Positions 1,842 to 24,817 of a stretch of 64,000 nucleotides of DNA are shown here, piece by piece (within the stretch, counting starts at the first letter, position 1; the number at the start of each line of letters is the position of its first letter). The notes under the pieces are model-generated. The model did not search any database and was not told the origin of the DNA. It worked only from the letters and a program-made list of their open reading frames with translations. Source of the stretch: Pirellulales bacterium (GTDB lineage: Bacteria > Planctomycetota > Planctomycetia > Pirellulales > JBBDJB01). Position numbers and translations under genes: made by a program. The DNA is taken from NCBI GenBank assembly GCA_040880125.1, contig JBBDJB010000032.1:11090-75089 (forward strand), read 5' to 3'.

Positions 1842-2438
1842 ATGAGCGAGAAAAAGCCCCACTACTTTCTCTTCGTCACCGGCGATCACGGTGAGTCGGG
1901 CGAGAGCCTTTGGAAGTTTGTCCTCCAGCCGGTCGAAGGCGACTCGAAGATGGTCGTCTCTGATCGCGAGCCGGAGGCCGTCGGCGAACGGCTCGAGCTT
2001 TTGGCCCTGGTCCGCGGACTGGAGGCGCTCGATCAGCCATCCCGCGTGACGCTGGTCACCGAGAGCCGCTACGTCAGCCGCGGCGTGCAGTACGGCCTGG
2101 AAGAATGGCGTGAAAACGCCTGGATGTGGGAGCGGTTCGGCTGTTTGGTGCCAATCAAGGACCGCGACCTCTGGCAACGGGTCGATCAGGCGTTGAAGTT
2201 TCACCGCCTGGAGTGTCGCACGTGGCGCGTCGACGCGGCGCACAGTTCTGCCGCAGCGGCAGCCGCAGTCTCGGATGCCCCACGGCCGCATTCCCCGCGT
2301 GTCCGCCGGGCGGCGCAGTCTCGACCCGGCTGGAGCCAGCGGATCGCCGCCGCAGTCGGGAGCTGGCGGCCACGTTGGGCCACAAGACCGACCGGATGGG
2401 TAAATGCAGGTAGCGTGGGCAATTTGGGCGCAGTTTGA
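1842..2438 (+). CDS. RNase HI-like protein, possibly catalytically degenerate, with a C-terminal Ala/Arg/Pro-rich tail
   Basis: ATG at 1842. GERLELLALVRGLEAL...VTLVTESRYVSRGV...KDRDLWQRVDQAL parallels E. coli RNase HI NNRMELMAAIVALEAL...ILSTDSQYVRQGI...KNVDLWQRLDAAL (quoted from memory). TESRYV replaces TDSQYV, and the C-terminal GH...D.LA segment is missing. Confidence 0.65.
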   Translation: MSEKKPHYFLFVTGDHGESGESLWKFVLQPVEGDSKMVVSDREPEAVGERLELLALVRGLEALDQPSRVTLVTESRYVSRGVQYGLEEWRENAWMWERFGCLVPIKDRDLWQRVDQALKFHRLECRTWRVDAAHSSAAAAAAVSDAPRPHSPRVRRAAQSRPGWSQRIAAAVGSWRPRWATRPTGWVNAGSVGNLGAV

Positions 2439-2739
2439 CCGCAGCACGCGCGGCCGTGAGAATGGACATCCAGACCTGCAGCCGTGGCGTGCGAAAGCGA
2501 AAAAATTCGCATGAATTCAGCCCCGGCACTCGTTTTACCGCTACCGGCTGAAACTTACGATTCCAGCTACTAAGACAAGGGTCTGCACCACAGCCCACCC
2601 GACAGGGGCTCCGGCAGGAAGCGACGTTAACGAAACCGAACGAGAACGGACCCAATCGAACGAGGGGCGAAGCCACCGCGGCCGGAGAGCCGCACAACGG
2701 GCGGCCGCCAGTTGGTCGAATGGGCCAAGCGAGGAGGAT

Positions 2740-4948
<2,209 letters not shown>

Positions 4949-4986: not shown

Positions 4987-5129
4987 ATAGGTGAGGGCAT
5001 GGCACCCAGCGGACGAAAGTCCTCTCGCCGGTCTCGCATTGGGAGAGGGGTTGCACGGTGGCACAGATACTCCTGTCCGTGCGCCGTGCCAGATTCATTT
5101 TGCAGTTCCGGCGGCAAAGCCAGTTGTCA

Positions 5130-7631: not shown

Positions 7632-7681
7632 GGGGAGGATTCCTGGCTAAAGCAAGGCGACGGTCAGCGCGGCTGTCTCAC

Positions 7682-7709
7682 TTGACAGGAGCTTGGCCGG
7701 CCTATTAAT
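7682..7709 (+). promoter_or_regulatory. sigma70-like promoter candidate (TTGACA ... TATTAAT) in the divergent ppiD-like/topA intergenic region
   Basis: TTGACA lies at 7682-7687 and TATTAAT at 7703-7709, giving a 15-16 nt spacer. It sits ~355 nt upstream of the topA ATG. This is pattern only; promoter rules for this phylum are uncertain. Confidence 0.2.
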
Positions 7710-8063: not shown

Positions 8064-10796
8064 ATGGCCAAAAAAGCTAATAACCACGGCACCAGATCGC
8101 TGGTGATTGTCGAGTCGCCCGCCAAAGCCCGCACGATCGAAAAAATCCTGGGGAGCAACTTCAAAGTTGCCGCCAGTATCGGCCATGTGCGCGACCTGCC
8201 GCAAGGCGCCAAACAGGTGCCGGCCAAGTACAAGGGCGAGGACTGGGCGCATTTGGGCGTGAATGTCAACGAGGATTTCGACCCGATCTACGTTGTTCCG
8301 CCCGGCAAGACCAAGCAAATCGCCAAGCTCAAATCGCTGTTGAAAGAGTCTGACCAGCTTTATCTGGCGACCGACGAGGACCGCGAAGGCGAGGCGATCA
8401 GTTGGCATCTGTGCGAACTGCTTAAGCCGAAGGTGCCGGTTTACCGGCTCGTTTTTCACGAAATCACGGAGGAGGCGATCCGCGATGCCCTGTCCAATCC
8501 GCGAGATGTCGACGACCGGCTCGTGCGGGCGCAAGAGACGCGGCGGATCTTGGACCGGCTCTACGGCTACGAGGTCTCCCCGCTGCTGTGGCGCAAGGTT
8601 CGCCCCAAGCTCTCCGCCGGACGCGTTCAGAGCGTTGCGGTGCGGCTTATCGTCCAGCGCGAACGGGAACGGATGGCATTCGCTTCCGCGACGTACTGGG
8701 ACCTGCTGGCCACCTTTGCCGCCGAAGCGGGCCAGCCGTTCGATGCCACACTAATCTCCGTCGACGGGCGGCGCATTCCCGCCGGTAAGGATTTTGATTC
8801 GGCAACCGGTCAACTCAAGGACAAGAACCTGTACTTGCTGCAGGAAGGTGATGCCGCGGCGCTGGTCGAGCGGCTGCGGAATGCAACCTTTCGCGTCGTC
8901 GGGCTGGAAGTGAAGCCTTACACGTCGCAGCCGTACGCTCCGTTCACGACCAGCACGTTACAGCAAGAGGCAAATCGCAAGCTCGGATTCACGGCTAAGC
9001 GGACGATGCAGATCGCGCAGAGCCTGTACGAGACTGGCCACATCACCTACATGCGAACCGATTCGACGAACCTGGCGAGGGTGGCCGTCGACGCCGCCCG
9101 CGATCTGGTGGCTTCCGAATACGGGCGCGACTATCTGCCGGACTCGCCGCGGACTTATAAGTCGAAGGTGAAGAATGCCCAGGAGGCACACGAGGCGATT
9201 CGGCCGGCCGGGCATCCCTTCGAACTGCCTTCGGCAATGCGGTCGCAGCTCAACGCCGAAGAGTTCAAGTTATTCGAGCTGATTTGGAAGCGGACCGTGG
9301 CCAGCCAGATGGCCGACGCCCGCGGCCGGCGGATTGCCATCACGATCGAGGGCGACGGCTGCCGGTTCCGCGTGAGCGGTAAAACGGTCGACTTCGCCGG
9401 TTACCTGCGGGCGTACGTCGAGGGTTCGGACGATCCCGATACCGAACTGGCCGACAAGGAAACGCTGTTGCCCGACGTCCAAGAGGGGCAGCAGCTCGAT
9501 TGCCGAAAGCTCAAGCCCGTCGGCCACACGACGCAGCCGCCTGGCCGGTTCAGCGAAGCGGCGCTCACCCGTTCGCTCGAGGAAAAGGGCATTGGCCGAC
9601 CCAGCACCTATGCTTCGATTATCGAGACGATCCTGGCGCGGGGCTACGTGTTCAAAAAGGGAACCGCTCTGGTGCCGACGTGGGTGGCGTTTTCCGTTGT
9701 GAAGCTGTTGGAGGATCACCTGCCGACATTGGTGGACTATCAGTTCACCGCTCAAATGGAGGACGACCTGGATACGATCAGCCGCGGCGAGAAGGGGCCG
9801 ACGGAGTATCTGACCCGGTTTTACTTCGGCAACGGGCAGGTGGGCCTCAAGCCGCAGTTAATGAACAAGGTGGAAGAGATCGACGCGCGGGGCATCAGCC
9901 GCATTTTCATCGGCAAGCCGGACGATGGCGAAGAGATCTACGTACGAGTGGGCCGCTATGCTCCGTTTATCGAACAGGGCGAGCGCCGCGCACCACTGCC
10001 GGAGGATACGCCGCCGGACGAGGTGAACGTCCAGACGGCGCTGAAGCTGCTTGAACAGGCGAGCCTGGCCGACGAGCCGCTGGGCATCTGCCCGGATACG
10101 CATAAGCCGGTTTATTTGAAGGTCGGGCGATTCGGACCCTACGTGCAACGAGGCACGCCGGACGATGACGAGAAACCGCAGAACGCCTCGCTGCTGAAGG
10201 GGATGTCGCCGGAGGCTATCGACCTGGAAACCGCAATCAAGCTGCTTTCGCTGCCGCGGAATCTGGGCGATCATCCCGAAACCGGCCAGCCGGTGATGGC
10301 GCACAACGGTCGGTTCGGCCCGTACGTGAAAAGTGGCGACGAAACCCGCTCGTTGCCGGCGGAAACGTCACCGCTGGAAGTGAGTCTCGACGAAGCGCTA
10401 AAGCTGCTGGCGCAACCCAAGACGCAGGGGCGCCGCCGAGGCGGCGCGCCGCAGGCGATCAAGGAGTTCGAGAAGTCGCCGGTCACTGGCGAGCCGATCA
10501 AGCTGCTCAGCGGCCGCTATGGACCGTATGTGACCGACGGCACGACCAATGCATCGCTGCCGAAGGATCGAGCTCCGGAGGAGCTGACGTTCAAGGAAGC
10601 GCTTGATCTGCTGGCCGCCCGGGCGGAGCTCGGACCCTCGAAAAAGAAGGCGGCCCGAAAGAAAAAATCCTCCGGCAATAAGAAGACGACCGCTAAGAAG
10701 AAGACTTCCACCAAGTCGGCCAAGAAGTCGGGCACCGCAAGCAAGAAAGCCGCGAAGAAGAAGACCTCCAAGGGGAGCACGTCGCGCAAATCGTAG
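8064..10796 (+). CDS. topA: DNA topoisomerase I with a C-terminal lysine-rich tail
   Basis: 910 aa. It has a TOPRIM start (LVIVESPAKARTIEKILG, ATDEDREGEAISWH), the active-site region HITYMRTDST, repeated C-terminal GRFGPYV/GRYGPYV motifs, and a terminal KKKAARKKKSSGNKKTTAKKKTSTKSAKK tail. Confidence 0.97.
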   Translation: MAKKANNHGTRSLVIVESPAKARTIEKILGSNFKVAASIGHVRDLPQGAKQVPAKYKGEDWAHLGVNVNEDFDPIYVVPPGKTKQIAKLKSLLKESDQLYLATDEDREGEAISWHLCELLKPKVPVYRLVFHEITEEAIRDALSNPRDVDDRLVRAQETRRILDRLYGYEVSPLLWRKVRPKLSAGRVQSVAVRLIVQRERERMAFASATYWDLLATFAAEAGQPFDATLISVDGRRIPAGKDFDSATGQLKDKNLYLLQEGDAAALVERLRNATFRVVGLEVKPYTSQPYAPFTTSTLQQEANRKLGFTAKRTMQIAQSLYETGHITYMRTDSTNLARVAVDAARDLVASEYGRDYLPDSPRTYKSKVKNAQEAHEAIRPAGHPFELPSAMRSQLNAEEFKLFELIWKRTVASQMADARGRRIAITIEGDGCRFRVSGKTVDFAGYLRAYVEGSDDPDTELADKETLLPDVQEGQQLDCRKLKPVGHTTQPPGRFSEAALTRSLEEKGIGRPSTYASIIETILARGYVFKKGTALVPTWVAFSVVKLLEDHLPTLVDYQFTAQMEDDLDTISRGEKGPTEYLTRFYFGNGQVGLKPQLMNKVEEIDARGISRIFIGKPDDGEEIYVRVGRYAPFIEQGERRAPLPEDTPPDEVNVQTALKLLEQASLADEPLGICPDTHKPVYLKVGRFGPYVQRGTPDDDEKPQNASLLKGMSPEAIDLETAIKLLSLPRNLGDHPETGQPVMAHNGRFGPYVKSGDETRSLPAETSPLEVSLDEALKLLAQPKTQGRRRGGAPQAIKEFEKSPVTGEPIKLLSGRYGPYVTDGTTNASLPKDRAPEELTFKEALDLLAARAELGPSKKKAARKKKSSGNKKTTAKKKTSTKSAKKSGTASKKAAKKKTSKGSTSRKS

Positions 10797-10965: not shown

Positions 10966-13900
10966 CTAACTTCCGCTGCCGACCGCCGGAAGGCGTACTG
11001 TCGATGCATCGACCGGCGCGGTGCCTCGCCAGCCGCGATGCACAATCGCACCCAGGCTCAGAGCGATGATGATCCAGCCGACAAAGCCCGGCGCGAGAAA
11101 CAGCGACCAGAACAGGCCCCCCAGCACTCCCAGCGCGTGCGGCCACCGCCAGTACAGATCGGCCCGTAGACCGCGGCGGTGCAATAGTACGCACACTTCC
11201 AGGGCCACCACCAGGGCCAGTGCGGCCAGGATGCGTCCAAACAGATTCGCGCTGCGCACATCGTCGTAGTGCATCGTCACCGTCTCGACGCCGCCCTGGA
11301 ACATACACCGCGTGGTCTGCCCCTGCCCGTCGCGGGAAAGTCGCCACAGTTCGGCCGGTTCGTCGGCGATCTGCTGGCTGCCCCGCACCTGTGCCCATTG
11401 GTCGCTCGTTTTGAGTCGCTGAGCAACGTCAGCCTGCTCGGCGGCCACGGCATCGGCGAGCGAGCGCTCGATAATCGCGTCCGGGTTGGCGGCCGCCTCG
11501 CGTGCCACTTCCATGCGAGCCAGCTCGAGCCGCCGCGACCACGGCACGTACCACCGGCGAATCACGTCGGCGGGTTGATCGGCGGCCGTTTCCGCCGCCA
11601 GTTCGATCAGCGAAGCCGTGCTCTCCAGACGCAGCACCGACTGCCGCAGTCGGCTGATCGGCTGCGCGTCGGCCGTTTGCCCGCTCCCGGCCGAAGCCGG
11701 ATTATGGACCGTCCACAGAGTCCGCTCGACCTCGATGGCGGCACTTTTGCCTTGCTGGTCGGCGGATAGCAATCGCGGCGCGTGAAGTCGCAATCGGCCG
11801 GGCAGCTCGGCCACGCCGGTCCGATCGAGGGCGAACACCACCTCCACGCGCTGCGGCAGCGACTGAGGGCCGAGCATCATTCGCCAGCGCTGCGGATCGA
11901 CCGGCTCGAGCGTTGCCGGCAGCCCCGCCACGGTGGCGCAGATCAGTCGACCGCCCTCTGGCAATTCCAGGACGCATGAGGCCCGGCCGGCTGGCTCCAG
12001 GTCGAACGTCGCCACCCCCTGGTACGAACCATCGGCTTGCACGGCGGCACGCACGTCGGCCAGGCGGATTTGCGCCACTGTCGGCGGCGGAGTAGACTGC
12101 AGCACGGCCTGATATTGGCCATCGAGCACCTGGTAAACGGTGCGGTTGGCATTTCGCTCCGTGCCGAGATGGTCGGGCAGTTCCGCCGCGCGCAGGCCTC
12201 GCGTGTCCCAACTGACTTGCTGTAGATCGGACTGCGTGGGCAAGACGACATACTGCTCGACGTTGTCGATGCTCTGCAGCTCAACCCGCGGCACTCGCAC
12301 GCGCTGCGTGGGAGTGAGCGAAACAGCGGCGCGGACTCTTACGAGCCGTTGCTCGCCGATCGGCGATCGCGGGCGGATGGTCAGTTGCCGGCGGTTGTTG
12401 CCGGGCAGATTTACGACGTGCACGGAGGCGGCGGGTTCAACCGTATAGGCGGACGCATCGCTGCTGCCCCACCAGGTCGGTACGTTCAGACGGACGTGGT
12501 CGAGAACGCCCTCCGCGATGTTCAGCCGGCAGATCCACTCGGCCTGCCATCGGCCTCCGGTGAATCGCAGGGCCGTCGCCGTGGCAGCGGAAGTCTGCGG
12601 CCGGTTGGGGGAGATCGAGAGCGTCACGTCGCCACCAGAAGCCACCGCGAACGCTCCCACCAGCCGCGCGTCAGGAAATGTGCCGTCGCCTGGCTGGACT
12701 TGCTCCACGGGAGAAAGTGACTCTTGCTCGGGAACATTCACAAGCACTTCCGGCCGGCGGTAAACTCGCAGCCGCGAGGACTGCACAAGCCAGGCGCCTT
12801 GTGCGTCGGAAGCCGGAAGTACATCGATCCGCGGAACCGTGAAGTCGCTCTCCAGCGGCAGGTCCATACGGCCACGAACAGTCAACTGTGGGACATTGAC
12901 CGGTGGAGTGTCAAGCAAGACCGTCAGCAAGCCGCTTTGGTCGTCTCGCCACCAATGGGCCGGCCGCGAGACGCCCTCATCCACGACCGCCACGTCATTG
13001 ACCGAGAGCTGCTGGGGAATTGCGACGGTGTATTGAAACTCCGGCCCCGCGGTACTGATCGTGGTGAGGTTCATCTCGTACTTGGCTTCGCCGCGGCCCA
13101 GACAGACCGCCATCTGCTGTTCAATGGCGGCTTGCCCGGCACGAGGACGCGTGGCCAAACTCCAGTCCACGCCGCCAGCGGGCAGTTGATACGCCAGCGA
13201 CGGAGTCTCGCTGGCGGCGCCCCAGGCGGCGGAAAACTCCGATATGCCCACCGCAGGGAGCGAGTCGTTCTGCGGACTCTGGAATTGAAGTTCGGGGCCG
13301 ACCGAGACCGCGAGCAACCGCCGCGTCCGCTGCATCGACTCCAGGGAAACGTCCGGCAAATGGTAGTGTCCCACGCCCGAGGCACCGCTGAGACGAAATC
13401 GCAGATCCACCGTGGCGCGATCGGTGATGGGGCGATCCCATCGCAGGACAAACTGTTGGCGTTCGCCGACCAGCGTCCGCTGGCTGGTGATCGCCGACTG
13501 CTCGTCGATCGGCAGCAGCGACAGCCGCGGGTCGGCCGAAACATTCAATTGCCGAACGCTCCCCTCCAGGACGTTGAGCTTCCACCGGACGCGAAGCGTC
13601 ACCGCGCCGGGCCGGATGTCCAGCCATTGAAGCTCTTCGACTTCCGCGGCGGCCCGCTGGCCGTTGGTCGGAGCGAGACTCGGCCAGCCGACGGCGAGTG
13701 TATCCGTCGAACCGAGTTCCGCAGTCAATACGCCGGTGTCTGGATCGATTGACGTAGCGCCTCGGGCGGTTTCAATTTCCACGCCGTACGCGTCGTCGGG
13801 TATCGACAATACCAGCCGCGAAGCGGGCACGGGCGGAATCGGCAGCGTGAAGCCGCTGGTTGACTCCTCGATCTTCGTACCAGGCCGAAGCAACACGGAG

Positions 13901-16900
13901 ATACGATACCGGCCCGGTTCCGAGACGGGAACGACGATGCCGCTTCCGTCGGGGCCGCTTTGCGGAGTGGCGCGCCGTCCGTCCAACCGCACGGCATCGA
14001 GCGAGTCGGCCAGGGTGCCGGCATCGAACGGCAGCGAGACACTCGCCGGCCGTCCCCAGACGACCAGGTCGTAATCCGCTTCGAGTCCTTGCGGAGTGAG
14101 GCTGTCGTGTGCCTCGTTCCACTCCAGCGATCCGCGATAGGCGGCGCCGGTGATCATCCAATCGCGCGGCACGTCGGAAGGCGCCGCCCGCTGCTGAAGC
14201 GCCTTATAGAACTCCTCGGATAGGTAGTACTTGCCGCCGATCGGATCGCCATTGGAGTCGGTGGGGATCAGCAGTCGATGTATCGTTGGCGCGGCAGCAG
14301 TTGCCGAGTTTCGATCCGACGCGGATTGGCCGAGTTGTGGAGCACCAAGTGCCGCTTCGCCGGGCAGTACGGAGACCCCGATCGCGAGGAACAGAACTGA
14401 CTGTACCAGCACAAACTGGGTGGAGCTCGCTTCCGACTCAATGGTGGCGGGAATGCGGCTCGGCCGAAGCCGCAACAGGCGGATCAGCCCACCGGCCAGC
14501 GTACCCATGAAGACGCCGGTGGCTAGACTAGCATATGCCTCTGGAAGCAGCAGGGCCGCGGTCGCGGCGCATCCCGCGAGGACGAACAACACCAGCAGCC
14601 GCTCGGCGATCTTCCAATATACGACGGCGGCAATCGCCAGAAATAGCACCAGGCTGAGCATGCTGACCGCCTGCTCTCGCACGACGCGTACGCCGGCCGG
14701 CTCGCCGGCCGCGTTCTCTACCCGGTAGATCTGCCACCCGGTGACGTCGGGCGCAGCCGGCCAGTTGGCGGCCCACGGGGAGACCGCGCGGGCCAGCTGC
14801 TCGGGGTGCGCGCCACTTGTTACATCACCGAAGGGCATCGCAGTGGCCATCGAGACGTCGCTATCAGCGACGGCGGGCGCCTGTTCGGCGTCAGCCGGTA
14901 GTCGCCCCAGCGGCCCGAATAGACGCTGGCTCCAAGACATCCGCTGGTCGGGTCGGGCGGCGATCGAATCGGTCGCCACGTAGCCCGGCGGCAGCCATAG
15001 TGTCCAGTCGCTTGCTACGATCGGCAGGTCAATGCTCGGGATGCGCGGTTTGAACGTGTTGAAGATCCGCAGCGGCCGGCCACCACTCACGTAGTGCAGC
15101 GACACGACGGGAAACCGCTGGCCGACCGGCAGGTTAAGCTGAAATCGCCGTGGATACTCGCGAATCTTGGCTTGGGCGACCTGCTCGCCGTCGATCCACA
15201 CTGCCTGCAGCTCGGAACCCACCGGCACCGACAATTCGACTTGGCGTCGTCCGGCGTTCTCGATGCGGAAGCTAGCGAAGTGGGCCGCCGTGCCGTCCGG
15301 CATGCAGCGAGTGTCAAGACTGCACTTCCAGACCCAGGCCAGCGGATGAGCTGCCGACTGCGGCGTCGGCTCCAAGGTTACTGCCGCGGTCGCTTGATCC
15401 GCGACGTCGCGCGAGGGAACATATCGGAATGTCGCCCGGGCGGTGGGGAACTGTTGCGGCAGCGTCAACTCGGCGGGCATTGGCTCCAGCCGATGATTGT
15501 GGATCAATGGCCGCGCGTCGCCATCGACAAAGATCGTCAGCCGTCCGGTCTGTTCCGTCGCGTCGGGTAGCGATGCCAGGCGGACGTCCACGGATTGGGT
15601 GAACGGCAACGTGCGCTGTGCCCGCACTGCAAACGGAGTGGTCATGGGCCGGCGGAGCGCCAGTTCCCAAGTTTCACCTTCCGCCGCCGCGTCGCCGGAC
15701 GAGGCCGGATCACTCACCCGCTCGGCGGTCAGTTGGGAAGCGGGTTCACCCACCAGCGACCACTTCAGCGGCGGACCGCCGGCGTGGCTGAACTGCACCA
15801 GCACGCGGTCCAATCTGGACGAAGCCGGCGTGCACGTCAGCCGGTGGGCTTCGACGAGCGAGTCGCCCTCGATGCGGATCTCGGTATCGACCTGACCTGT
15901 GAACACGGGCGTTTCTTCTTGCAACGAGAATCTCGCCGCCTCGGCCGCCGAATCGAGCGGAAACAGTAGGCCGTCGGTGCGTACTCCAAACAGGGTCGCC
16001 TCGATGTCTCCCAGTTCGGCCAGGTTGATCAGAGACAGCGCCTGGTCCCGATCGTGTCGGAGCTGAAACGGTGCGGCCGCGCGCACCAGCATCAGCTCCC
16101 GCATTTGGCTCACGTTTTCAAAGGAGAGCATCCGCAACTCGGCCACAGGAGTGGCCTGCGCAAGATTCCCACGGCGCAATCGACCCCGGATTACCACCCG
16201 CAATGGACGTGAGGGCCCTAGCGCCTGGGCCAGTTGGATGCTTAGCGTCCGGCGGCCGTCGGATGCCTCTTCGAGGCTCCAGTCGCCGAGTGCCGATTCG
16301 GGCAGTGTCTCCACGGTGTCGACGATCCATTGCGACAGAACGCGTGCACTCAACTGGAACGACTCGGAGCGACTGGTCTGAAACTCGGCGATCGTTCGGC
16401 CGTTGATCTCGTGCTCGGCGATTTCGGTGGTTGTGCCCGCCAGCACCTCTAATCGCGGCTCAACCCGGCTGACGCGCACCTCTGCGGTGGCGTCCGGTCC
16501 GAACGCCTGTAGTTCCAGCGACGTGCCCGACCGGGTGCCCGTCAACGGCTCCACGTTCGTCTGACGGCATTGGATCGGGAGGATTCGATTCAGGACCAGA
16601 GGCTGCGGCACGACGACCTGCAACTGGCCTTCGGTCCAGAAAGCGTCGGCCGCGCGGATACGGGGGAGCCGCCACGCCGCGTCGGTGACCAGGGGCGCGA
16701 TCGCCGAGATAAAGACGCGGCCCGAGCCCTGGATCGGTTCGGGAAGTTCCAGCACGATGCGCGTTCGCTCGGCGCCTGCTTCGGTGACGTCGGTCCAGGG
16801 AATGTCCGCGTCACGGTACTTGGCGGCGACCAGCCGCAACGTCGGATCGGCTTCAATGATTACCTGATAGATCGGGTGTCCCTGCGTCTCGAGGGAGATG

Positions 16901-17715
16901 CGACCCGAGAGCGTTAACCCCTGCGGAGAGAGGTCGTACGTCAGCAGCTCTCGGGCTGAGAGCCAGCTCGGTTTACTGTCGGTCGTTTCCGGCTCGATGC
17001 GCAGTACCAGTCGATCGGCTCCGCCCAACTCGATGTGCCAGAGTGCCTCTTTTGCCTCCTGGTTAGCGGCGGCTTCGGGATGGGGAGAGAGCTTCTCGAC
17101 GAAGCCCCCCTCCACGGCCGGCGCCATTCCGTGAGGCAATCGGAGCCGAATTCGCTTCGCCGGCACCGGGGGGAGTTGCGCTTCGAATACCAGTTCGCCA
17201 AACGCGTCGCGGCGCCCTTGCAGCGACCAGCCAAACTCGAGCGTGTCCGTTTTCTCGACCAGGACGGACGGCCCGTGCTCCCGAGTGAACCCCAGCAGCG
17301 CTTCGCGCTGGTCCGACTTCCACTTCGGTTCGAACGCAGGGAGCGAAAACAGCCCGAGGCGAAGAATCCGCGGCTGCGTGGCGTCGTGCACGATTGTCAA
17401 CGACGCAGCGCCGTCGACGAGTTGATCGTCGGCCAGACGGGCCTCGAAGCGGGCCTCAATTATTCGCGTCGAGGAGAGCGACTCGGCGCGCGAGCCATTT
17501 TGTTCCGCCTGGCGCACGAGCTGCTCGAATTGTTCGACGTCGATCGGCAGATAGCGCTGGTCGCCCAGCGGCCATTTTTCGGATTGATCGGCCGGAGCAA
17601 AGACGCGATGGTATCGCAGCGACTCAACCGTCTGCGCCTCCTGGGCGCGGCAACAGTTCGCCAAGAGCAACACGCCGACCAGCGCCGTGCTCGCGATCAT
17701 CCGTCGGCGCATCAT
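10966..17715 (-). CDS. giant hypothetical envelope protein (~2,249 aa) made of two tandem paralogous ~1,100-aa modules
   Basis: The ORF is open to 18246, but the plausible start is ATGATG at 17715. That gives MMRRRMIASTALVGVLLLANCCRAQE (signal-peptide-like) and makes an ATGA overlap with the upstream stop. By eye there is a mid-protein cluster of 4 hydrophobic helices (nt ~14350-14680) and a C-terminal cluster of 3 helices. No known domain recognised. Confidence 0.85.
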   Translation of the reverse strand: MMRRRMIASTALVGVLLLANCCRAQEAQTVESLRYHRVFAPADQSEKWPLGDQRYLPIDVEQFEQLVRQAEQNGSRAESLSSTRIIEARFEARLADDQLVDGAASLTIVHDATQPRILRLGLFSLPAFEPKWKSDQREALLGFTREHGPSVLVEKTDTLEFGWSLQGRRDAFGELVFEAQLPPVPAKRIRLRLPHGMAPAVEGGFVEKLSPHPEAAANQEAKEALWHIELGGADRLVLRIEPETTDSKPSWLSARELLTYDLSPQGLTLSGRISLETQGHPIYQVIIEADPTLRLVAAKYRDADIPWTDVTEAGAERTRIVLELPEPIQGSGRVFISAIAPLVTDAAWRLPRIRAADAFWTEGQLQVVVPQPLVLNRILPIQCRQTNVEPLTGTRSGTSLELQAFGPDATAEVRVSRVEPRLEVLAGTTTEIAEHEINGRTIAEFQTSRSESFQLSARVLSQWIVDTVETLPESALGDWSLEEASDGRRTLSIQLAQALGPSRPLRVVIRGRLRRGNLAQATPVAELRMLSFENVSQMRELMLVRAAAPFQLRHDRDQALSLINLAELGDIEATLFGVRTDGLLFPLDSAAEAARFSLQEETPVFTGQVDTEIRIEGDSLVEAHRLTCTPASSRLDRVLVQFSHAGGPPLKWSLVGEPASQLTAERVSDPASSGDAAAEGETWELALRRPMTTPFAVRAQRTLPFTQSVDVRLASLPDATEQTGRLTIFVDGDARPLIHNHRLEPMPAELTLPQQFPTARATFRYVPSRDVADQATAAVTLEPTPQSAAHPLAWVWKCSLDTRCMPDGTAAHFASFRIENAGRRQVELSVPVGSELQAVWIDGEQVAQAKIREYPRRFQLNLPVGQRFPVVSLHYVSGGRPLRIFNTFKPRIPSIDLPIVASDWTLWLPPGYVATDSIAARPDQRMSWSQRLFGPLGRLPADAEQAPAVADSDVSMATAMPFGDVTSGAHPEQLARAVSPWAANWPAAPDVTGWQIYRVENAAGEPAGVRVVREQAVSMLSLVLFLAIAAVVYWKIAERLLVLFVLAGCAATAALLLPEAYASLATGVFMGTLAGGLIRLLRLRPSRIPATIESEASSTQFVLVQSVLFLAIGVSVLPGEAALGAPQLGQSASDRNSATAAAPTIHRLLIPTDSNGDPIGGKYYLSEEFYKALQQRAAPSDVPRDWMITGAAYRGSLEWNEAHDSLTPQGLEADYDLVVWGRPASVSLPFDAGTLADSLDAVRLDGRRATPQSGPDGSGIVVPVSEPGRYRISVLLRPGTKIEESTSGFTLPIPPVPASRLVLSIPDDAYGVEIETARGATSIDPDTGVLTAELGSTDTLAVGWPSLAPTNGQRAAAEVEELQWLDIRPGAVTLRVRWKLNVLEGSVRQLNVSADPRLSLLPIDEQSAITSQRTLVGERQQFVLRWDRPITDRATVDLRFRLSGASGVGHYHLPDVSLESMQRTRRLLAVSVGPELQFQSPQNDSLPAVGISEFSAAWGAASETPSLAYQLPAGGVDWSLATRPRAGQAAIEQQMAVCLGRGEAKYEMNLTTISTAGPEFQYTVAIPQQLSVNDVAVVDEGVSRPAHWWRDDQSGLLTVLLDTPPVNVPQLTVRGRMDLPLESDFTVPRIDVLPASDAQGAWLVQSSRLRVYRRPEVLVNVPEQESLSPVEQVQPGDGTFPDARLVGAFAVASGGDVTLSISPNRPQTSAATATALRFTGGRWQAEWICRLNIAEGVLDHVRLNVPTWWGSSDASAYTVEPAASVHVVNLPGNNRRQLTIRPRSPIGEQRLVRVRAAVSLTPTQRVRVPRVELQSIDNVEQYVVLPTQSDLQQVSWDTRGLRAAELPDHLGTERNANRTVYQVLDGQYQAVLQSTPPPTVAQIRLADVRAAVQADGSYQGVATFDLEPAGRASCVLELPEGGRLICATVAGLPATLEPVDPQRWRMMLGPQSLPQRVEVVFALDRTGVAELPGRLRLHAPRLLSADQQGKSAAIEVERTLWTVHNPASAGSGQTADAQPISRLRQSVLRLESTASLIELAAETAADQPADVIRRWYVPWSRRLELARMEVAREAAANPDAIIERSLADAVAAEQADVAQRLKTSDQWAQVRGSQQIADEPAELWRLSRDGQGQTTRCMFQGGVETVTMHYDDVRSANLFGRILAALALVVALEVCVLLHRRGLRADLYWRWPHALGVLGGLFWSLFLAPGFVGWIIIALSLGAIVHRGWRGTAPVDASTVRLPAVGSGS

Positions 17716-20700
17716 GAGTTCGATTCCGACGGCTGAAGCGTCGCTGTGGAGCCGGGGGGATGCTCGGCGACGGGCGGAGCGAGGCTTTCTGTGCTTTGGA
17801 TCGGCGACGCCATCGAACTGGCACTTCCGCGGACCACCACCGGCGCCTGACGTTGCCGCGTCAGGACCAATTTGAGCAGCGTCGCCAGCACGGCCAGCAG
17901 CAGTCCCAATGTGGCCGCCTGAGCGATGAGCATCGCCGGCTCGGGGTACACCAGTCCCAGCGCCATCAGGGCCAGTGCTCCGGCTAACAACACGCCCGGA
18001 TGCCGGCTGGCACGTACGTACAGCAGCAACAGTCCCATACCCAGCGTGACGGCGGACGCGAGCAATACAATCAGCGAGCGATCGGCCGTCGAAATTCGTA
18101 GCGGTTGGACGTTCTTCAACGAACTGAATAGGTACCGATTGGTGGTCGAGGGAACGCTCGTGCCGCGCTGGGCCCCCACCCACGTTTCCAACTGCGACTG
18201 CTCCATCAGCGGTTGCCGGCCCCAGTACAGCCCCCGCCAGTCCCACAAGAACTCGCGCGCAAAGTCAGCCGGCATGACCACGACGTGCAAGTCGTTGGGC
18301 AGCACGACCTGCCAGTAGATGTGCCGGATCCAGATATCGTCGGCCGGCCGCGATGGTTCCAGCACAAGCGGACCATTCGAGGCCCCGCCGCCCTGCATGT
18401 GGTAGCGGAGCTCCAGCAGATACTCTCGCTGCGTCGGGGACTCGGGCAGAGGAACCGTCAACCGGCGCTGCTGGGGCATCAGCGCCAGACGCTCACTGTC
18501 CAGCTTCGCCTCGATAGCGTCTTCTGCCACTCCTTCCGGCAGGAGGACCTCGAAGCTCGGCTCATTCGTCGTGAAGCGAAACGTGGCTCGATCCTGTCGG
18601 GCTGTGGCGGTCAACCAGCTTTGCAGCCAGGCTCTTTGCACCACGGTAGAGCCCTCGCTTCGCGGTTGTATAAGATGCGCTACCAGCGGAACGTGCAGCG
18701 CCCGGCTCGCTTTGCTCAGCCGCAATTCGCGGCGCCGGGTGGTCGCCGTTGCCGACGGGTTCACCTCCGCCCAATCCGTGGCGGAAGTCGTGACCTCCGT
18801 CCCCTCCGCTGGCAGGATCGTCACACCGTTACTGCCGAGTGTGCCGTCGGCCGGCATCACCAGCGGCGCCGGCAGTCGAGTGCTCTGCTCGGGCCGCAAC
18901 AGCGGACCACCGAACGCATACGAGACATTCACGGTGAAAGCGCCGATGCGAGGCTCCTTCAGAGTAATCTGAACCAGCGTATGTTCGGAGTCGCTGTTCG
19001 CCTCCGTGTTCTCACGCACCGTCACCGGCAAGAGCGGCTCGCCGTCGATGCTGATTTCCAGCCCGCCGGCCGCTGCCAGTTCCGGCGGAACTTCAAGGGA
19101 AAGCTTGTCCACCGGCTCATAAGCGACGCGATAGGTGAACGTCTGTGCCACTCGGCCGCCGGTAGGATTAATAGTCACGTCGCTTTGCGCGTCGACGTTG
19201 ATCGCCTGCTCGTAAACCCGCACGCGTGCGGCAAATTCCGCCGCTTCGACGTCTCCCAAGAAGTACAACGGATTCTGCTGACGAGGCGGCAGTTCGATCC
19301 GCGGCGCGCTCTGCTGCGGCGAAAGCCCCACCATCGCCTCGGTTTGCGGGATCAGTTCTACGTTGTCGTCCGGAAGTACTACCACGATCGACCGCGTTTG
19401 CGAATCGGCCACCGGTCGAGGCAGAGGCAACCGGGCAGTGCTGTCGTCTCTGTCGACCGCTCGTCGCGCGCTGAACGTCAAGTCAATCTGCCCGATCGAC
19501 GGCTGCAGAAGGGGAACGGTCAATCGATCACCATCGGCTGGCGGAATGGCGTCGATGTCCACCAGATTGGCCGGCCCGATCGTCTCCGCGTCAACTTCCC
19601 AGCCAGCCATTTCGATTTCGACCTGAAACGCCTTGTTCCCTCGCACCGTGTAGCGTAGCCGCGCCTCCAGTCGGGCCTGCTCCTCGCCGATCAGCAGCAC
19701 GTACTGCGGCTCCACCCGCACGGTCCGCTCGCGCGGTGCGAGCCTGGCAGTGAGTGAGAATGGCTGGCGAAAGTACTCGAATCCGGCGGCCAGATCTTCG
19801 CTGCGGAGCGACTCCGGCAGCGTCTCGACCTGGTAGGCGCCGCGACGCTGCTGCCAGAGCACATGCCAGTTGCCGACGCGCTCCACGGCGATATGGCCAT
19901 ACTGGCTGACCGCCCCCAGCACCTCGAAACCGGCCAGCTCAAGCGGCTGCTCCGGCGTCGCCGAGCGATGCGGCTGCTCGGTCACCAGCCGAATCGTCAC
20001 CGGACCGGCCGTGGCTGAATCAAGACGCACATCGACAATGCCGCCGTCTTCGGAAGTAGAGGAAGGCGCGATCGCATAGTCGCGCTCGCCGTCGCTTACC
20101 AACTCGGCCCCCGGCGGCAGTCGAACTTGAAGATGGTCGAATGGACCGCCGAAACTGCGGACCGTCAGATCGGCTTCGGTGTGAACACCGCCGCCATCGA
20201 TCCGGCAGAGAATCTCGCCTTTCGCCTCGAGGCGCAATCGGGCGCGGGGCGCCGGTTCATTTGGTCGACTCCATCCGATTTCAAATTCCCCGCCAATGCC
20301 GTGCGCCACCAATTCAGTCGAATTGTCATCGCCTTTGGGATTTGATTCAACGAGCGCCGCTTCGTCGCTCACTCGTGCTTCGGCACCGGTCAGGTCGACG
20401 TTCAAACGGAGCTCGGAGGCCACGGCGCGCGGAAGATTGAGTTGCAACACGGACTCGCCTGCCACCCGTTTGACCGGCGCGAGAACGGTCCACGACAGCG
20501 TTCGCGACTGCCCCGCCTCGCCACGCATCCAGAGCAAATAGCTGGCCGAGTCATCGTCGTAGTCGATAAACGCATCTGGCGCGTCCAGCGGCTGTTTCGG
20601 CGCAACGCGACGCATGCCGATGGGAATCCCGACCGTGCCGGTGGTGTTCAGCAGCACCTCCATCACGATCGTCAGTTCCGCGCGGTCGCCGTGGACGGCG

Positions 20701-21176
20701 CCTGTGATATCCAGCCGCTGCATGCTGTAGCGCGGTGTGGCGCTGCCGCGGTTCATCTCGCCCTTCAGCCGGATCGCCTCAAGAAAGTCCTCGTAGGCGT
20801 ACTGCAAGACTTTTTGGAGTTGACCGTTGCCGTCCGGTAACAGAAAGGTGTCCGGCTCGGTCCGCTGCACCACGCTTTGGGAATCGGCGCCGCCAGAATC
20901 GGCCGGCTCCATGACCGTTGGCGGCAGCACGGGGCTAGGCGGCGCCGCCGCCGGCTGCGCAGACAGCGAACCTGCCGGCCATGCCATCCACAGCAAGATC
21001 GCCACTGCCAATTTAATCGAGTACCGCACGATCACGGACCCTCGCAGCAAGCCGGTACGGTCGTTGGCCGGCGCCAGTAAGAATGCGTCTCCGCCAAAGG
21101 GGAGAACAAAGACGAGAGTGCAAAGGTTCGCCCGCTTGATCCACCCACTGAGCGAGCCGCGGAAGCCGGGCAGCAT
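17712..21176 (-). CDS. giant hypothetical envelope protein (1,105-1,154 aa), single module paralogous to the two halves of the downstream gene
   Basis: Coordinates are those of the maximal ORF. The likely true start is GTG at 21029, with GAGGG 9 nt upstream, giving MRYSIKLAVAILLWMAWPAGSLSA|QP (signal peptide). The C-terminus has three hydrophobic helices (LIVLLASAVTLGMGLLLLYV, GVLLAGALALMALGLVY, AMLIAQAATLGLLLAVLATLL). No known domain recognised. Confidence 0.85.
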   Translation of the reverse strand: MLPGFRGSLSGWIKRANLCTLVFVLPFGGDAFLLAPANDRTGLLRGSVIVRYSIKLAVAILLWMAWPAGSLSAQPAAAPPSPVLPPTVMEPADSGGADSQSVVQRTEPDTFLLPDGNGQLQKVLQYAYEDFLEAIRLKGEMNRGSATPRYSMQRLDITGAVHGDRAELTIVMEVLLNTTGTVGIPIGMRRVAPKQPLDAPDAFIDYDDDSASYLLWMRGEAGQSRTLSWTVLAPVKRVAGESVLQLNLPRAVASELRLNVDLTGAEARVSDEAALVESNPKGDDNSTELVAHGIGGEFEIGWSRPNEPAPRARLRLEAKGEILCRIDGGGVHTEADLTVRSFGGPFDHLQVRLPPGAELVSDGERDYAIAPSSTSEDGGIVDVRLDSATAGPVTIRLVTEQPHRSATPEQPLELAGFEVLGAVSQYGHIAVERVGNWHVLWQQRRGAYQVETLPESLRSEDLAAGFEYFRQPFSLTARLAPRERTVRVEPQYVLLIGEEQARLEARLRYTVRGNKAFQVEIEMAGWEVDAETIGPANLVDIDAIPPADGDRLTVPLLQPSIGQIDLTFSARRAVDRDDSTARLPLPRPVADSQTRSIVVVLPDDNVELIPQTEAMVGLSPQQSAPRIELPPRQQNPLYFLGDVEAAEFAARVRVYEQAINVDAQSDVTINPTGGRVAQTFTYRVAYEPVDKLSLEVPPELAAAGGLEISIDGEPLLPVTVRENTEANSDSEHTLVQITLKEPRIGAFTVNVSYAFGGPLLRPEQSTRLPAPLVMPADGTLGSNGVTILPAEGTEVTTSATDWAEVNPSATATTRRRELRLSKASRALHVPLVAHLIQPRSEGSTVVQRAWLQSWLTATARQDRATFRFTTNEPSFEVLLPEGVAEDAIEAKLDSERLALMPQQRRLTVPLPESPTQREYLLELRYHMQGGGASNGPLVLEPSRPADDIWIRHIYWQVVLPNDLHVVVMPADFAREFLWDWRGLYWGRQPLMEQSQLETWVGAQRGTSVPSTTNRYLFSSLKNVQPLRISTADRSLIVLLASAVTLGMGLLLLYVRASRHPGVLLAGALALMALGLVYPEPAMLIAQAATLGLLLAVLATLLKLVLTRQRQAPVVVRGSASSMASPIQSTESLAPPVAEHPPGSTATLQPSESNS

Positions 21177-21556: not shown

Positions 21557-22330
21557 TCAACAGCCGGTGAGGTGTGAGGCGATCTGTGCGTGCAGCGACT
21601 CGGTGGCAGCGGCGAGAAAGGCCGGCCGCCACAGATCGAAGGGCCCACCGTCGCGAGCCGTGACCACTCCGCCCGACTCGCAGACCGCCAACACGCCGGC
21701 GGCTACGTCCCAGGGGTAGATTACCGCCGCCCAATAGCCGTCGATCCTTCCGGCGGCGAGATAGCAGAGGTTCAGCGCGGCGGACCCCATTCGTCGAATC
21801 GCCTGGCAATGTTGAGTGATCTCGACCAGGTCCCGCATATCGACCGATTCGGGCTTCACTTTGGGGGGAAGGCTGATCGCCAGCATCGCCTGGCCAATTT
21901 GTTCGACTCGGCTCGTGCGCAGTTGAATTCCGTTCAGGTATGCACCCCCTCCACGAATCGCCGTGTAGCACTCTTCGGCGACCGGATCGTAAACGGCGCC
22001 GGCCTGCACGACGCCGTCTCGCTCGACGGCCACGGAAACGGAGTACTGCGGCAGCCCGTGGACGAAGTTCGCGGTGCCATCGAGTGGATCGGCTACCCAG
22101 CAGTATTCGGCGTCCGGACGCTGCGTTGCGCCCTCTTCTTCCCCGACAAATCCATGAGTGGGGAAGGCCGTCTCGACGATACGGCGGATCGCGCGTTGCG
22201 AGGCCAGATCGGCCTCGGTAACCAGGTCCGAGGGGCCTTTTTCACGGACACCCAATGGGCCGCGGAACTGTTGGATCGCCTTGCCGCCGGCGCGCGCGGC
22301 CTCTTCGCAAACGTTTACTAATTGGGACAT
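21557..22330 (-). CDS. inositol monophosphatase family protein (SuhB/CysQ-like)
   Basis: Motifs FVGEEEG, WVADPLDGTANFVHGLPQYSVSVA and WDVAAG are present. The start is moved to ATG 22330 (MSQLVNVCEEAARAGG); the track ORF begins at an upstream GTG. Confidence 0.9.
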   Translation of the reverse strand: MSQLVNVCEEAARAGGKAIQQFRGPLGVREKGPSDLVTEADLASQRAIRRIVETAFPTHGFVGEEEGATQRPDAEYCWVADPLDGTANFVHGLPQYSVSVAVERDGVVQAGAVYDPVAEECYTAIRGGGAYLNGIQLRTSRVEQIGQAMLAISLPPKVKPESVDMRDLVEITQHCQAIRRMGSAALNLCYLAAGRIDGYWAAVIYPWDVAAGVLAVCESGGVVTARDGGPFDLWRPAFLAAATESLHAQIASHLTGC

Positions 22331-22419
22331 TACGTCATTGCACCTCGGAATTGTGCAACTGGCCACCACGCGCGGACCGATTATAAAGGGTGCCGGACAG
22401 TCGTGCTATCGGTGAGGTC

Positions 22420-22682: not shown

Positions 22683-23429
22683 ATGTCCGAAGCGAGTCCT
22701 CCTGCTCCCGCCACGTGGACACTGCAGGACACCCGCGCGCAGTACATCGCCGGCGAGTTGCGCGGAACAGTCGATCTGACCTCCCCGCGGCCAGGCCTGT
22801 CGGGGCTTTCGCTGCGAGGACAATCGCTGCCGGGAAGCATTTTGCAGGTCGCGTTCGATCCTGCAGCTTCGGACAGGTCAGCCCGTTTGTCCGACGCCTA
22901 CATCCGCCGGTCGGACCTGGTCGCCACCTACACATCAACGGAGGCGTGTCCCTTCCGGACGCAAATCTATTGGCGCGCCGTGGCGGACAATGCTGCGCTG
23001 ACCGCGCTCGACCTGATCATCTCGGTACAGACGCATTTGCTCGACACACGCCCGGTACTGCAAGCCAGTATATCTCTACCGGGCGAGCTGCTCCGTTTGC
23101 GCGAGGGCGGTGATGGTCACTTCGAACCGGTGGAGTGTCGTAGCGCGGCGGACGATGCCGACGCCCCCGGATGCTTTCTGTGGCGGATAGCCGGTTCAGG
23201 CCTCAGCTTCGCCGGAATGATTCACCCGGCGGATCGGCGGAGTCTTCACATCGAGCGGGACGGCGAACAAACCCGCGTGCGGTTCAGCCTCTTCTCGTGC
23301 TTCTTAGAGAAGGGGGTCATCCTGCGAGCGCGCCTGCGCGGAGTATTCCTCCCGCGCGAGAGCGAGGATGTCGCCGCAGTGAACTGGTACCGCGAGCTGG
23401 TCGCGGCGAAGCCGCCGCTGACCACCTGA
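22683..23429 (+). CDS. hypothetical protein
   Basis: 248-aa ORF starting at an ATG, with coding-like composition. No motif recognised. There is no SD, and the ATG lies only 14 nt after the terminator T-run, so the start is uncertain. Confidence 0.55.
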   Translation: MSEASPPAPATWTLQDTRAQYIAGELRGTVDLTSPRPGLSGLSLRGQSLPGSILQVAFDPAASDRSARLSDAYIRRSDLVATYTSTEACPFRTQIYWRAVADNAALTALDLIISVQTHLLDTRPVLQASISLPGELLRLREGGDGHFEPVECRSAADDADAPGCFLWRIAGSGLSFAGMIHPADRRSLHIERDGEQTRVRFSLFSCFLEKGVILRARLRGVFLPRESEDVAAVNWYRELVAAKPPLTT

Positions 23430-23498: not shown

Positions 23499-24671
23499 CT
23501 ATTGCTGCGGGGGCTGCGTCTGTGGCTTGCAATAGGAAAGCGCAAGCAGGGCATATCCTGTGACGAGATTTGGGTCGCCTTCCAGCCAGCGGTCGTTCTC
23601 GTTCACCCATGAGCCGTCGGGCCGCTGGCGCTTCGCCAACTCTTCTACCAGATCCCGTCGCCAATTGTGCCGGTCACCGCTGCCTTCCACGATCACGTCC
23701 TCGCCGATTGCCTCGAGGGCTTTGGCAAACGTGTGATAGTAGTAGTAGAGTCCGGCATTTCCCATGCCCGGGTTCTCATCGAGCGCGTAGTGCTGCCGGG
23801 CCCAGTCGTATGCGGCCTTGACGCGCATATCTTCGGGTCCGACACCGGCGTAGATCATGCTCTTCAGTCCGGCGTAGGTCATCGAACCGTAACTCCGCAG
23901 CCCGCCGCTAGTCGTCTCGCCGGCCTGGCTCTGACCGCCCGCGGCGATCGTGTAGTAAAAGCCGCCGTCAGGATTCTTCGTGCTGAACTCGGTGGTGTTG
24001 TGCTCCGATTCGAGGTTCTGGCACCGCGATACGAACACCAGCGCTGCTTGAAGATGTTCGTCATCCGGGCCGTTGCCGGTGGCCTTGAGTCCTTCGATCA
24101 GGAAACTGGTGTTCGACAGATCAGGTCGGGAATGACTGCCGTATCCGGCACCACCGTAGCTGGGGCTGGAGATGTCGTGGCCCTCTTGGGCATCCCATTG
24201 AATGCCCTTGATAAACTTTTCCGCCCCGTCCAGGAGCTCGTCGTAGCGGCCGTCGCGATTGGCCTCGTTGAAGCAGAGGATCGCCAGGCACGTCTCGTAA
24301 TTTCGGTGCCGCGAGCCTTCGGCGTAGATTCCGCCGTCGTCGTGGACGAAGCCTTTTAGGTACTCGAGGCTTCTCGCGATGAGCGGGTCTTCCGCCGTGC
24401 GTCCAGTGCGAAGCAGGGCAGTGGTGGCCAGTGCCGTGATGGCCGGTCCCGCGTGACTGCTGTAGGAGCCGTCCTCGGCCTGCCCCTGGTTTTCCAAATA
24501 GGCGATGGCCTTGGCGACGGTTTGCTCGTAGACGGCCGGATCGGGCCCAGCGACCGGCTCAGGATCGGCGGCTTGCGCCAATGCGTTGCCGGTGCAGGTT
24601 TGCCAGGCGAGAACCGCCACCAAGCCGCAATAGGCTAATATGGCGAAACGTGAACCGAGGTACCATCGCAT
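23499..24671 (-). CDS. secreted prenyltransferase/squalene-oxidase-repeat (alpha-alpha toroid) protein
   Basis: The start is moved to ATG 24671 (GGAGG upstream), giving MRWYLGSRFAILAYCGLVAVLAWQ (signal peptide). Repeated DGS(Y/W), DGG(I/F)Y and GGAGYG-type motifs are typical of terpene-cyclase/prenyltransferase repeat proteins. Confidence 0.8.
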   Translation of the reverse strand: MRWYLGSRFAILAYCGLVAVLAWQTCTGNALAQAADPEPVAGPDPAVYEQTVAKAIAYLENQGQAEDGSYSSHAGPAITALATTALLRTGRTAEDPLIARSLEYLKGFVHDDGGIYAEGSRHRNYETCLAILCFNEANRDGRYDELLDGAEKFIKGIQWDAQEGHDISSPSYGGAGYGSHSRPDLSNTSFLIEGLKATGNGPDDEHLQAALVFVSRCQNLESEHNTTEFSTKNPDGGFYYTIAAGGQSQAGETTSGGLRSYGSMTYAGLKSMIYAGVGPEDMRVKAAYDWARQHYALDENPGMGNAGLYYYYHTFAKALEAIGEDVIVEGSGDRHNWRRDLVEELAKRQRPDGSWVNENDRWLEGDPNLVTGYALLALSYCKPQTQPPQQ

Positions 24672-24817
24672 GAGAATCCTCCCTCTCTCCGCTTCCGCTG
24701 CTGAGCGCATGTAATTCGGCCGAAAAGCCGCTCCAACCGTACCGTCACTCCAATTTTAGCCCGCGAAGGGGAAAAGGATAATTTTTACTCGCAGGTATCC
24801 TCGCCCCTAGCAGTCTG

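Follow-up and report, generated by a model that had tools for sequence, protein, structure and literature searches.

A conserved two-gene locus of Pirellulales-type planctomycetes encodes three copies of a large module with predicted membrane anchors

What might be encoded by two giant genes that lie side by side in a planctomycetal genome and in which no domain was recognized? The question is raised by positions 10966..21176 (minus strand) of a 64,000-nucleotide stretch of contig JBBDJB010000032.1 from a Pirellulales bacterium (assembly GCA_040880125.1), hereafter the window; these positions are filled by two long open reading frames (ORFs), gene A and gene B. A first-pass annotation, made from the letters alone, had proposed that the two genes resolve into three paralogous modules of ~1,100 amino acids (aa), one formed by A and the others by the N- and C-terminal halves of B (BN and BC). 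Each module was held to consist of a signal-like or anchor start, a large ectodomain and a C-terminal cluster of three transmembrane (TM) helices, and the whole to be a multi-subunit envelope assembly without a link to any characterized family. The ORF list confirms both minus-strand genes at the sizes claimed (A, 1,105-1,154 aa; B, 2,249 aa). For A, the longest frame begins at an ATG at 21176 (17712..21176, 1,154 aa), a start without support from homologues, and a GTG at 21035 gives 1,107 aa; the family alignment consensus and the database gene call place the onset of the signal peptide at the GTG at 21029. Among 23 homologues of B, 22 span 2,126-2,564 aa and one is a partial entry of 1,714 aa; most are ~100-170 aa longer overall than B of the window. 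The combined size of A and B is ~3,350 aa, with 1 Cys in A and 13 in B.

Pairwise BLASTP was too weak to decide whether the three modules are paralogous: A-BN and A-BC alignments were no better than those of shuffled sequences, and BN-BC gave a weak match (E 2e-4 over 155 residues). Profile methods were therefore used instead. Family alignments of 109 homologues of A and 24 of B were built, the latter being divided at residue 1095/1096, and the modules were compared with hhalign. All three matches were colinear and near full-length: A-BN at E 3.7e-30 over 930 columns (residues 77-1053 versus 58-1082), A-BC at E 1.8e-29 over 969 columns (4-1063 versus 18-1139), and BN-BC at E 1.5e-37 over 1,021 columns (10-1095 versus 20-1142). 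Controls in which the template alignment was reversed, so that composition was kept and homology destroyed, reached a best E of 0.03-0.06 and were limited to the hydrophobic TM end. HMMER gave the same answer: a hidden Markov model (HMM) of the BN half matched A (8e-23) as well as the BC half (5e-17), and the model of BC matched the BN half (1e-12). No additional module copy was found in the window with the module HMMs. The motifs that the first-pass annotation had paired by eye all lie in aligned columns of the hhalign matches, namely YEDFLEAI (A), VEQFEQLV (BN) and EEFYKAL (BC); LNLPRAVASELRLNV, LPPVPAKRIRLRLP and IPPVPASRLVLSIP; YWQVVLP, DWTLWLP and LWTV; and the pair YPEPAMLIAQAATLG and LLPEAYASLATGVFMG. 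As the hhalign matches are significant, these motif matches are not chance. The view that the resemblance of the modules reflects chance or composition, and that the ORFs are spurious, can point to the A versus B-half BLASTP results and to the GC-rich nature of the region, which is prone to long spurious ORFs. It is refuted by profile E-values of 1e-29 to 1e-37 against 0.03 for the controls, by thousands of homologous clusters, and by the high-confidence models, conserved synteny and conserved ATGA junction described below. These data show that, at the level of sequence, A, BN and BC descend from a single ~1,100-aa module by ancient duplication.

A second level of duplication was found inside the modules. 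In hhalign self-comparisons, residues 274-722 of A matched residues 444-893 (E 3e-12), a shift of ~170 aa, and BC matched itself at a shift of ~165 aa (E 3e-16). AlphaFold2 models computed from the family alignments had a predicted local distance difference test score (pLDDT) of 86.3 and a predicted TM-score (pTM) of 0.52 for A, and 79.7 and 0.40 for BC. The two models agree in the succession of their elements, in which a signal or anchor helix is followed by a disordered linker, a hairpin with a helix, five all-beta domains, a juxtamembrane hairpin, three TM helices and a short disordered tail. Together, the off-diagonal self-matches and the shared element order show that each module consists of five tandem ~170-aa beta-sandwich repeats, and that the locus arose by a two-level duplication, of the domain to five copies and of the module to three. 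Hydropathy and AlphaFold2 bear out the start, ectodomain and three-helix cluster claimed for each module.

The all-beta domains of the models measure ~150-180 residues, some of their strands being 23-24 residues long; in A their borders lie at about 99-256, 257-434, 435-606, 607-790 and 791-942. Preceding them, the hairpin-plus-helix element is conserved as (Y/F)xVxxPxDxxGxxxxxP..(E/Y)(D/E)F, and its consensus in A, EVxPxxYYLxDKxGxLQPVPGFxYEDF, aligns with the equivalent elements of BN and BC. In the A model, residues 18-58 have a pLDDT below 50, the hairpin strands span 61-65 and 71-75, and the helix spans 79-93. The signal peptide of A is probably cleaved, as judged by a short hydrophobic region (~12 aa) of the kind seen in cleavable Sec signals. 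The modules differ chiefly beside the membrane: a short Trp-rich segment is found there in A, an insert whose length varies in BN, and a helical insert of ~110 aa in BC (BC-model helices 927-951, 954-981, 986-1005, 1009-1017 and 1025-1033, the long ones of 25-28 residues). The BN and A bundles have Y...PE...G positions in common in the hhalign alignment. Invariant residues in the family alignments are mostly W, P, G and L.

How these elements sit relative to the membrane can be predicted from topology rules. The ectodomains are acidic (isoelectric point 4.9-5.3), and positive loops in A (RASRH after TM1, TRQRQ after TM3) fall on the predicted cytoplasmic sides. All three ectodomains are accordingly predicted to be periplasmic and anchored in the cytoplasmic membrane. 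B would cross the membrane seven times after its signal peptide, the chain being brought back out by the connecting helix TM4 (B 1101-1119), a 'signal' that module 3 has kept; neither protein is predicted to have a folded cytoplasmic domain. We regard the architecture and topology described here as highly probable. In 17 of the 24 B homologues, TM4 is separated from the conserved N-terminal element of BC by 14-29 residues, a linker that at full stretch covers at most about 5-10 nm. Because this linker is short and BC has a C-terminal TM bundle of its own, BC would form an arch or loop with both ends fixed at the membrane rather than a straight stalk. Being homologous to BC, A and BN are probably arched in the same way, and an arrangement of the three head to tail, though speculative, would be compatible with this. 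The five repeats, the module-specific juxtamembrane inserts and the double tethering of BC are refinements of the first-pass annotation.

Conservation of the locus was assessed at the level of both protein and gene order. The A profile matched 6,173 clusters (50% identity) at E ≤ 1e-3, 4,670 at E ≤ 1e-10 and 2,804 at E ≤ 1e-30, and the best 150 of the cluster matches listed were saturated by A orthologues. Every source name among the homologues examined was 'hypothetical protein', from metagenome-assembled genomes (MAGs) labelled Pirellulales, Thermoguttaceae, Lacipirellulaceae, Pirellulaceae or Planctomycetaceae. The family is widespread in Pirellulales-type planctomycetes and, in all sampled cases, specific to them. 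Gene order was followed in 80 loci from species-representative genomes, a sample biased to close relatives because the genome scan was built on 14 close sequences. The order A, BN, BC on one strand was seen in all 60 loci that extend far enough. BN and BC share a single ORF in 47 of these 60 and in 47 of 47 outside the MFD series of MAGs. The 13 loci in which B is interrupted are all from MFD MAGs (L007, L016, L018, L031, L046, L049, L053, L055, L058, L064, L074, L076 and L078); since the breaks are restricted to this series and fall at irregular positions, they are probably assembly frameshifts rather than natural splits. Gene calls from MFD assemblies will fragment giant genes. The 4-nucleotide ATGA overlap of A and B is kept in 46 of 58 related loci, with a 1-nucleotide overlap in four more, and even L081 (GCA_054046845.1), a relative with just 27% identity, retains the A-B pair. 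These data show that the locus is a conserved two-gene operon.

Does the operon belong to a known system? For A and B, searches of Pfam-A 2025 and NCBIfam 20.0 returned zero families at E ≤ 1, and searches of PADLOC 2.0 and PHROGs v4 zero families at E ≤ 0.1; the distant A/B pair of L081 likewise had zero Pfam matches. Against PDB sequences the A-family profile had no significant match, the sole match (E 0.79) lying in the TM region. Thioester (C[GLA]EQ), HExxH and Walker motifs were absent from A and B, and the absence of the first rules out a thioester protease trap. A defence system was ruled out by the lack of a PADLOC match. A search for named or cultured members, with the distant L081 protein as query and a cluster look-up, found only 'hypothetical protein' entries from MAGs; a literature search found no description of the family. 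The first-pass annotation was therefore right to link the genes to no characterized family. The A/B family is large and unclassified, and is new both as a family and in architecture (a domain repeated five times, a module three times, and three three-helix anchors). Its mechanism is not shown to be new, and its building blocks, beta sandwiches and TM helices, are ordinary.

Structural neighbours were sought with Foldseek, using the A and BC models against PDB and the A model also against BFVD. Both models retrieved the same PDB neighbour set of generic multi-beta-sandwich proteins at TM-scores of ~0.1, including the N-domain of M1 aminopeptidases. BFVD yielded DUF11 and tail-fibre-type beta arrays for A; with BFVD giving generic beta arrays and PHROGs no match, a phage origin was ruled out. 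As far as the predicted models go, the matches tell no more than that beta sandwiches are strung together and held in the membrane at the C-terminus. Weak matches to multi-MG proteins of the alpha-2-macroglobulin/complement type (3prx, 2pn5, 7s63 and CD109) share the long beta-sandwich arrays, but their probability and TM-score were low, and A and B differ in lacking the CxEQ thioester motif and A2M Pfam domains and in having a three-helix anchor. BatD-type aerotolerance proteins, for which Pfam holds a model, resemble A and B in layout, with a signal peptide, periplasmic beta-rich domains and a C-terminal membrane anchor. A and B, however, have no Pfam BatD match at E ≤ 1, differ in size and in their threefold paralogy, and lie near no MoxR, DUF58 or VWA genes.

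The best Foldseek E-values for A and BC, 1e-8 to 1e-10, were to integrin alpha chains, at TM-scores of 0.08-0.13, a root-mean-square deviation above 24 Å and 8-11% identity. Like the integrin alpha leg (thigh, calf-1, calf-2, TM helix and short tail), each module is a beta-sandwich string with a C-terminal anchor and a short cytoplasmic tail, and the integrin alpha chain works in a heteromer, as is proposed here for A and B. In place of a beta-propeller head, however, the modules have a hairpin plus helix followed by five sandwich-type repeats; they lack FG-GAP or integrin Pfam matches, have three TM helices each instead of a single pass, and are bacterial, with a predicted periplasmic location and cytoplasmic-membrane anchor. 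Homology to integrins or ribophorin was not inferred from matches that are generic, with TM-scores of ~0.1. An integrin-like receptor or adhesin, sensing a periplasmic or envelope ligand and signalling across the cytoplasmic membrane, would account for these top matches and for the heteromeric design with C-terminal anchors that the locus suggests. We consider it very unlikely: beside the TM-scores of ~0.1 and the lack of an FG-GAP or beta-propeller Pfam match, no kinase or regulator gene is conserved nearby, and the cytoplasmic tails are short, disordered and unconserved, leaving nothing to signal with. On account of these unconserved tails it is the weakest of the three functional alternatives considered here.

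Ost1/ribophorin I of oligosaccharyltransferase was matched by both A and BC at E 5e-8 to 2e-9, a partial fold similarity, and together with PIG-T of glycosylphosphatidylinositol (GPI) transamidase it had the highest target-normalized TM-scores among the Foldseek matches, 0.2-0.3. Both are non-catalytic lumenal beta-sandwich subunits whose C-terminal TM helix lies beside a multi-TM complex. By analogy, A and B could assist a membrane enzyme complex as an accessory subunit that presents substrate or serves as a scaffold, with the catalytic partner encoded elsewhere, which would agree with these matches and with the shared succession of lumenal or periplasmic beta-sandwich domains and a C-terminal membrane anchor. 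Such a role is unlikely, as the TM-scores are low and the same searches match many unrelated beta-sandwich proteins. Ribophorin I and PIG-T have two lumenal beta domains and one C-terminal TM helix versus five and three per A/B module, the Pfam model of ribophorin I does not match A or B, and the conserved neighbourhood of the locus holds no STT3-type or other catalytic partner, neither a glycosyltransferase nor a transamidase.

The membrane helices themselves raise a further possibility. TM1 and TM3 of A are among its best-conserved segments, with R984, S992, L996, Y1004, P1029, Q1037 and G1042 near-invariant. If the ten TM helices of A and B formed a conducting or energy-transducing bundle, the beta domains could take hold of a substrate or gate its passage, as with a polymer brought into an enlarged periplasm; the polar or small residues conserved in TM1 and TM3 (R984, S992, Y1004, Q1037 and G1042) are in keeping with this, and three homologous bundles could build a pseudo-threefold pore. 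A transporter or channel is nonetheless quite unlikely, given that loops between the TM helices are only 3-8 residues long, that conserved S/G/A positions are equally typical of plain helix packing, that Pfam, NCBIfam and PDB show no similarity to transporter families, and that the conserved neighbourhood holds no ATPase or other energizing partner.

We favour instead a structural role. Judging from gene organization, with its conserved ATGA coupling, a gene order that does not vary and an obligatory fusion of BN to BC, A and B would be produced in equal quantity and form a pseudo-trimeric 1:1 complex, in which the TM bundles of A, BN and BC (3+3+3) and the linking helix may pack together. The multi-subunit envelope assembly of the first-pass annotation is something that we still infer, now on better ground: ATGA coupling in 46 of 58 loci and an A-BN-BC order without exception. 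The complex would serve as a structural scaffold without catalytic function at the periplasmic side of the cytoplasmic membrane; it might space the envelope, shape or tether the membrane as a frame, or offer a platform on which other periplasmic components dock. Pointing to a scaffold are the operon structure, the coupling and fusion, the conserved TM bundles, the lack of a cytoplasmic domain and of a catalytic signature, and the fold neighbours integrin alpha, Ost1/ribophorin I and PIG-T, all non-catalytic leg or scaffold subunits with a C-terminal TM helix. Several points weigh on the other side. The lack of a recognizable catalytic motif does not prove a lack of activity, and conserved polar TM residues (S992, Y1004 and Q1037) would be compatible, too, with a bundle that conducts or transduces. 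The inter-domain geometry of the A and BC models is moderately confident (pTM 0.52 and 0.40), and the argument for an arch fails if signal peptidase cleaves TM4 after insertion. The material searched held no experiment, proteomic record or named homologue for A or B, and the only neighbours conserved across the 80 loci, an inositol-monophosphatase-family gene and a 248-aa ORF, do not explain the locus. Overall, a 1:1 hetero-complex of A and B with three homologous modules and a scaffold function is a tentative reading, to which we assign a probability of roughly 0.45.

The features of the locus and its surroundings are collected in Table 1. On the strand of A, ~0.4-0.5 kb upstream, lies the inositol-monophosphatase-family gene, whose position is the same in 57-58 related loci. 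Beyond it, the 248-aa ORF has the same position and orientation in 43 related loci, which suggests that it is a real gene. Immediately after B, 15 of the 80 loci and L081 (14999..15520) have a gene for a GNAT acetyltransferase (Acetyltransf_1), the proteins being 55-62% identical between loci; in the window, the convergent topoisomerase I gene occupies its place. In L081, four small genes (1828..4605 of the GCA_054046845.1 locus) precede the A-B pair, co-directional and tightly packed. They encode two membrane proteins that are paralogous to each other and match Spo0M-like proteins weakly, an Arrestin_N-like protein of 129 aa (E 5e-6), and a 257-aa P-loop protein with a weak AAA_16 match and the Walker A sequence GWGKST, the end of whose gene overlaps the start of A; none of the four is found in the window or in the other 80 loci. 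Further upstream in the window, 23499..24710 (minus strand) encodes a 403-aa secreted protein with a weak match (E 2.5e-6) to the squalene-hopene-cyclase C-terminal region (terpenoid-cyclase/prenyltransferase repeat), and this gene is upstream in one related locus only (L031). Elsewhere in the window, ORFs of 875 aa (5058..7685, plus strand) and 833 aa (5130..7631, minus strand) overlap almost completely on opposite strands, both without a Pfam match. An Rfam scan and a promoter and terminator scan of 10-24 kb found nothing informative.

Table 1. Features of the A/B locus and neighbouring genes, in window coordinates (AF2, AlphaFold2)
Feature	Position	Strand	Basis or remark
Gene A, module 1	17712..21029	-	1,105 aa from GTG 21029; >150 orthologues at 30-45% identity
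A signal peptide, residues 1-22 (...AGSLSA/QP)	20964..21029	-	Hydropathy; AF2 helix 2-16
A Pro-rich disordered linker (23-58) and N-terminal hairpin/helix (59-98)	20736..20963	-	AF2, family consensus, hhalign
A ectodomain, five tandem all-beta domains	18204..20735	-	AF2 pLDDT mostly >90; hhalign self-match
A juxtamembrane W-rich helix and hairpin (943-983), TM helices 984-1004, 1011-1027 and 1029-1060	17850..18203	-	Hydropathy, AF2
A predicted cytoplasmic tail (1061-1105), disordered	17715..17849	-	pLDDT ~35; lowest conservation in protein
ATGA junction, overlap of A stop and B start (tcATGAtg)	17712..17715	-	Read from sequence; translational coupling
Gene B, fusion of modules 2 (BN) and 3 (BC)	10966..17715	-	2,249 aa, begins MMRRRM
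BN signal peptide (1-25) and ectodomain (26-1010)	14686..17715	-	Hydropathy, hhalign
BN three-TM bundle (about 1016-1034, 1040-1058, 1062-1082)	14461..14685	-	Hydropathy; hhalign to A bundle
Connecting helix TM4 (B 1101-1119, 19 residues) and 26-aa linker to BC N-terminal element	14281..14415	-	Hydropathy
BC ectodomain, hairpin/helix element and five all-beta domains (B 1146-2021)	11653..14280	-	AF2, hhalign self-match
BC-specific helical insert (B 2022-2128)	11332..11652	-	AF2; absent from A; hhalign gap region
BC three-TM bundle (B 2157-2230)	11026..11247	-	Hydropathy, AF2
Inositol-monophosphatase-family gene	21557..22369	-	Pfam Inositol_P E 8e-64; below every NCBIfam equivalog cut-off
248-aa ORF, divergent from inositol-monophosphatase-family gene	22683..23429	+	No Pfam, NCBIfam, PADLOC or PHROGs match
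Topoisomerase I, convergent, downstream of B	8064..10796	+	Present in window; position not conserved in related loci

Planctomycetes have a Gram-negative cell plan with a variable, sometimes greatly enlarged periplasm and deep invaginations of the cytoplasmic membrane, and their two membranes are pinned together by 'enigmatic' crateriform complexes, 'press-stud' contacts that were left uncharacterized and whose protein composition is unknown (PMC5394234). The A/B locus, being very large, strictly conserved, coupled, membrane-anchored by prediction, and free of a catalytic signature or curated relatives, is a concrete candidate for such planctomycetal envelope structures. In its most specific form, which we consider a long shot, the complex of A and B would be a pseudo-threefold, arch-shaped periplasmic frame that fastens or spaces the cytoplasmic membrane against the wall and outer membrane; it would, for example, supply the 'press-stud' contacts of crateriform structures with their inner-membrane part, or determine where the membrane may invaginate. 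If that were true, A and B would constitute an architectural machine of the planctomycetal envelope. At the least, the A/B family deserves a family definition.

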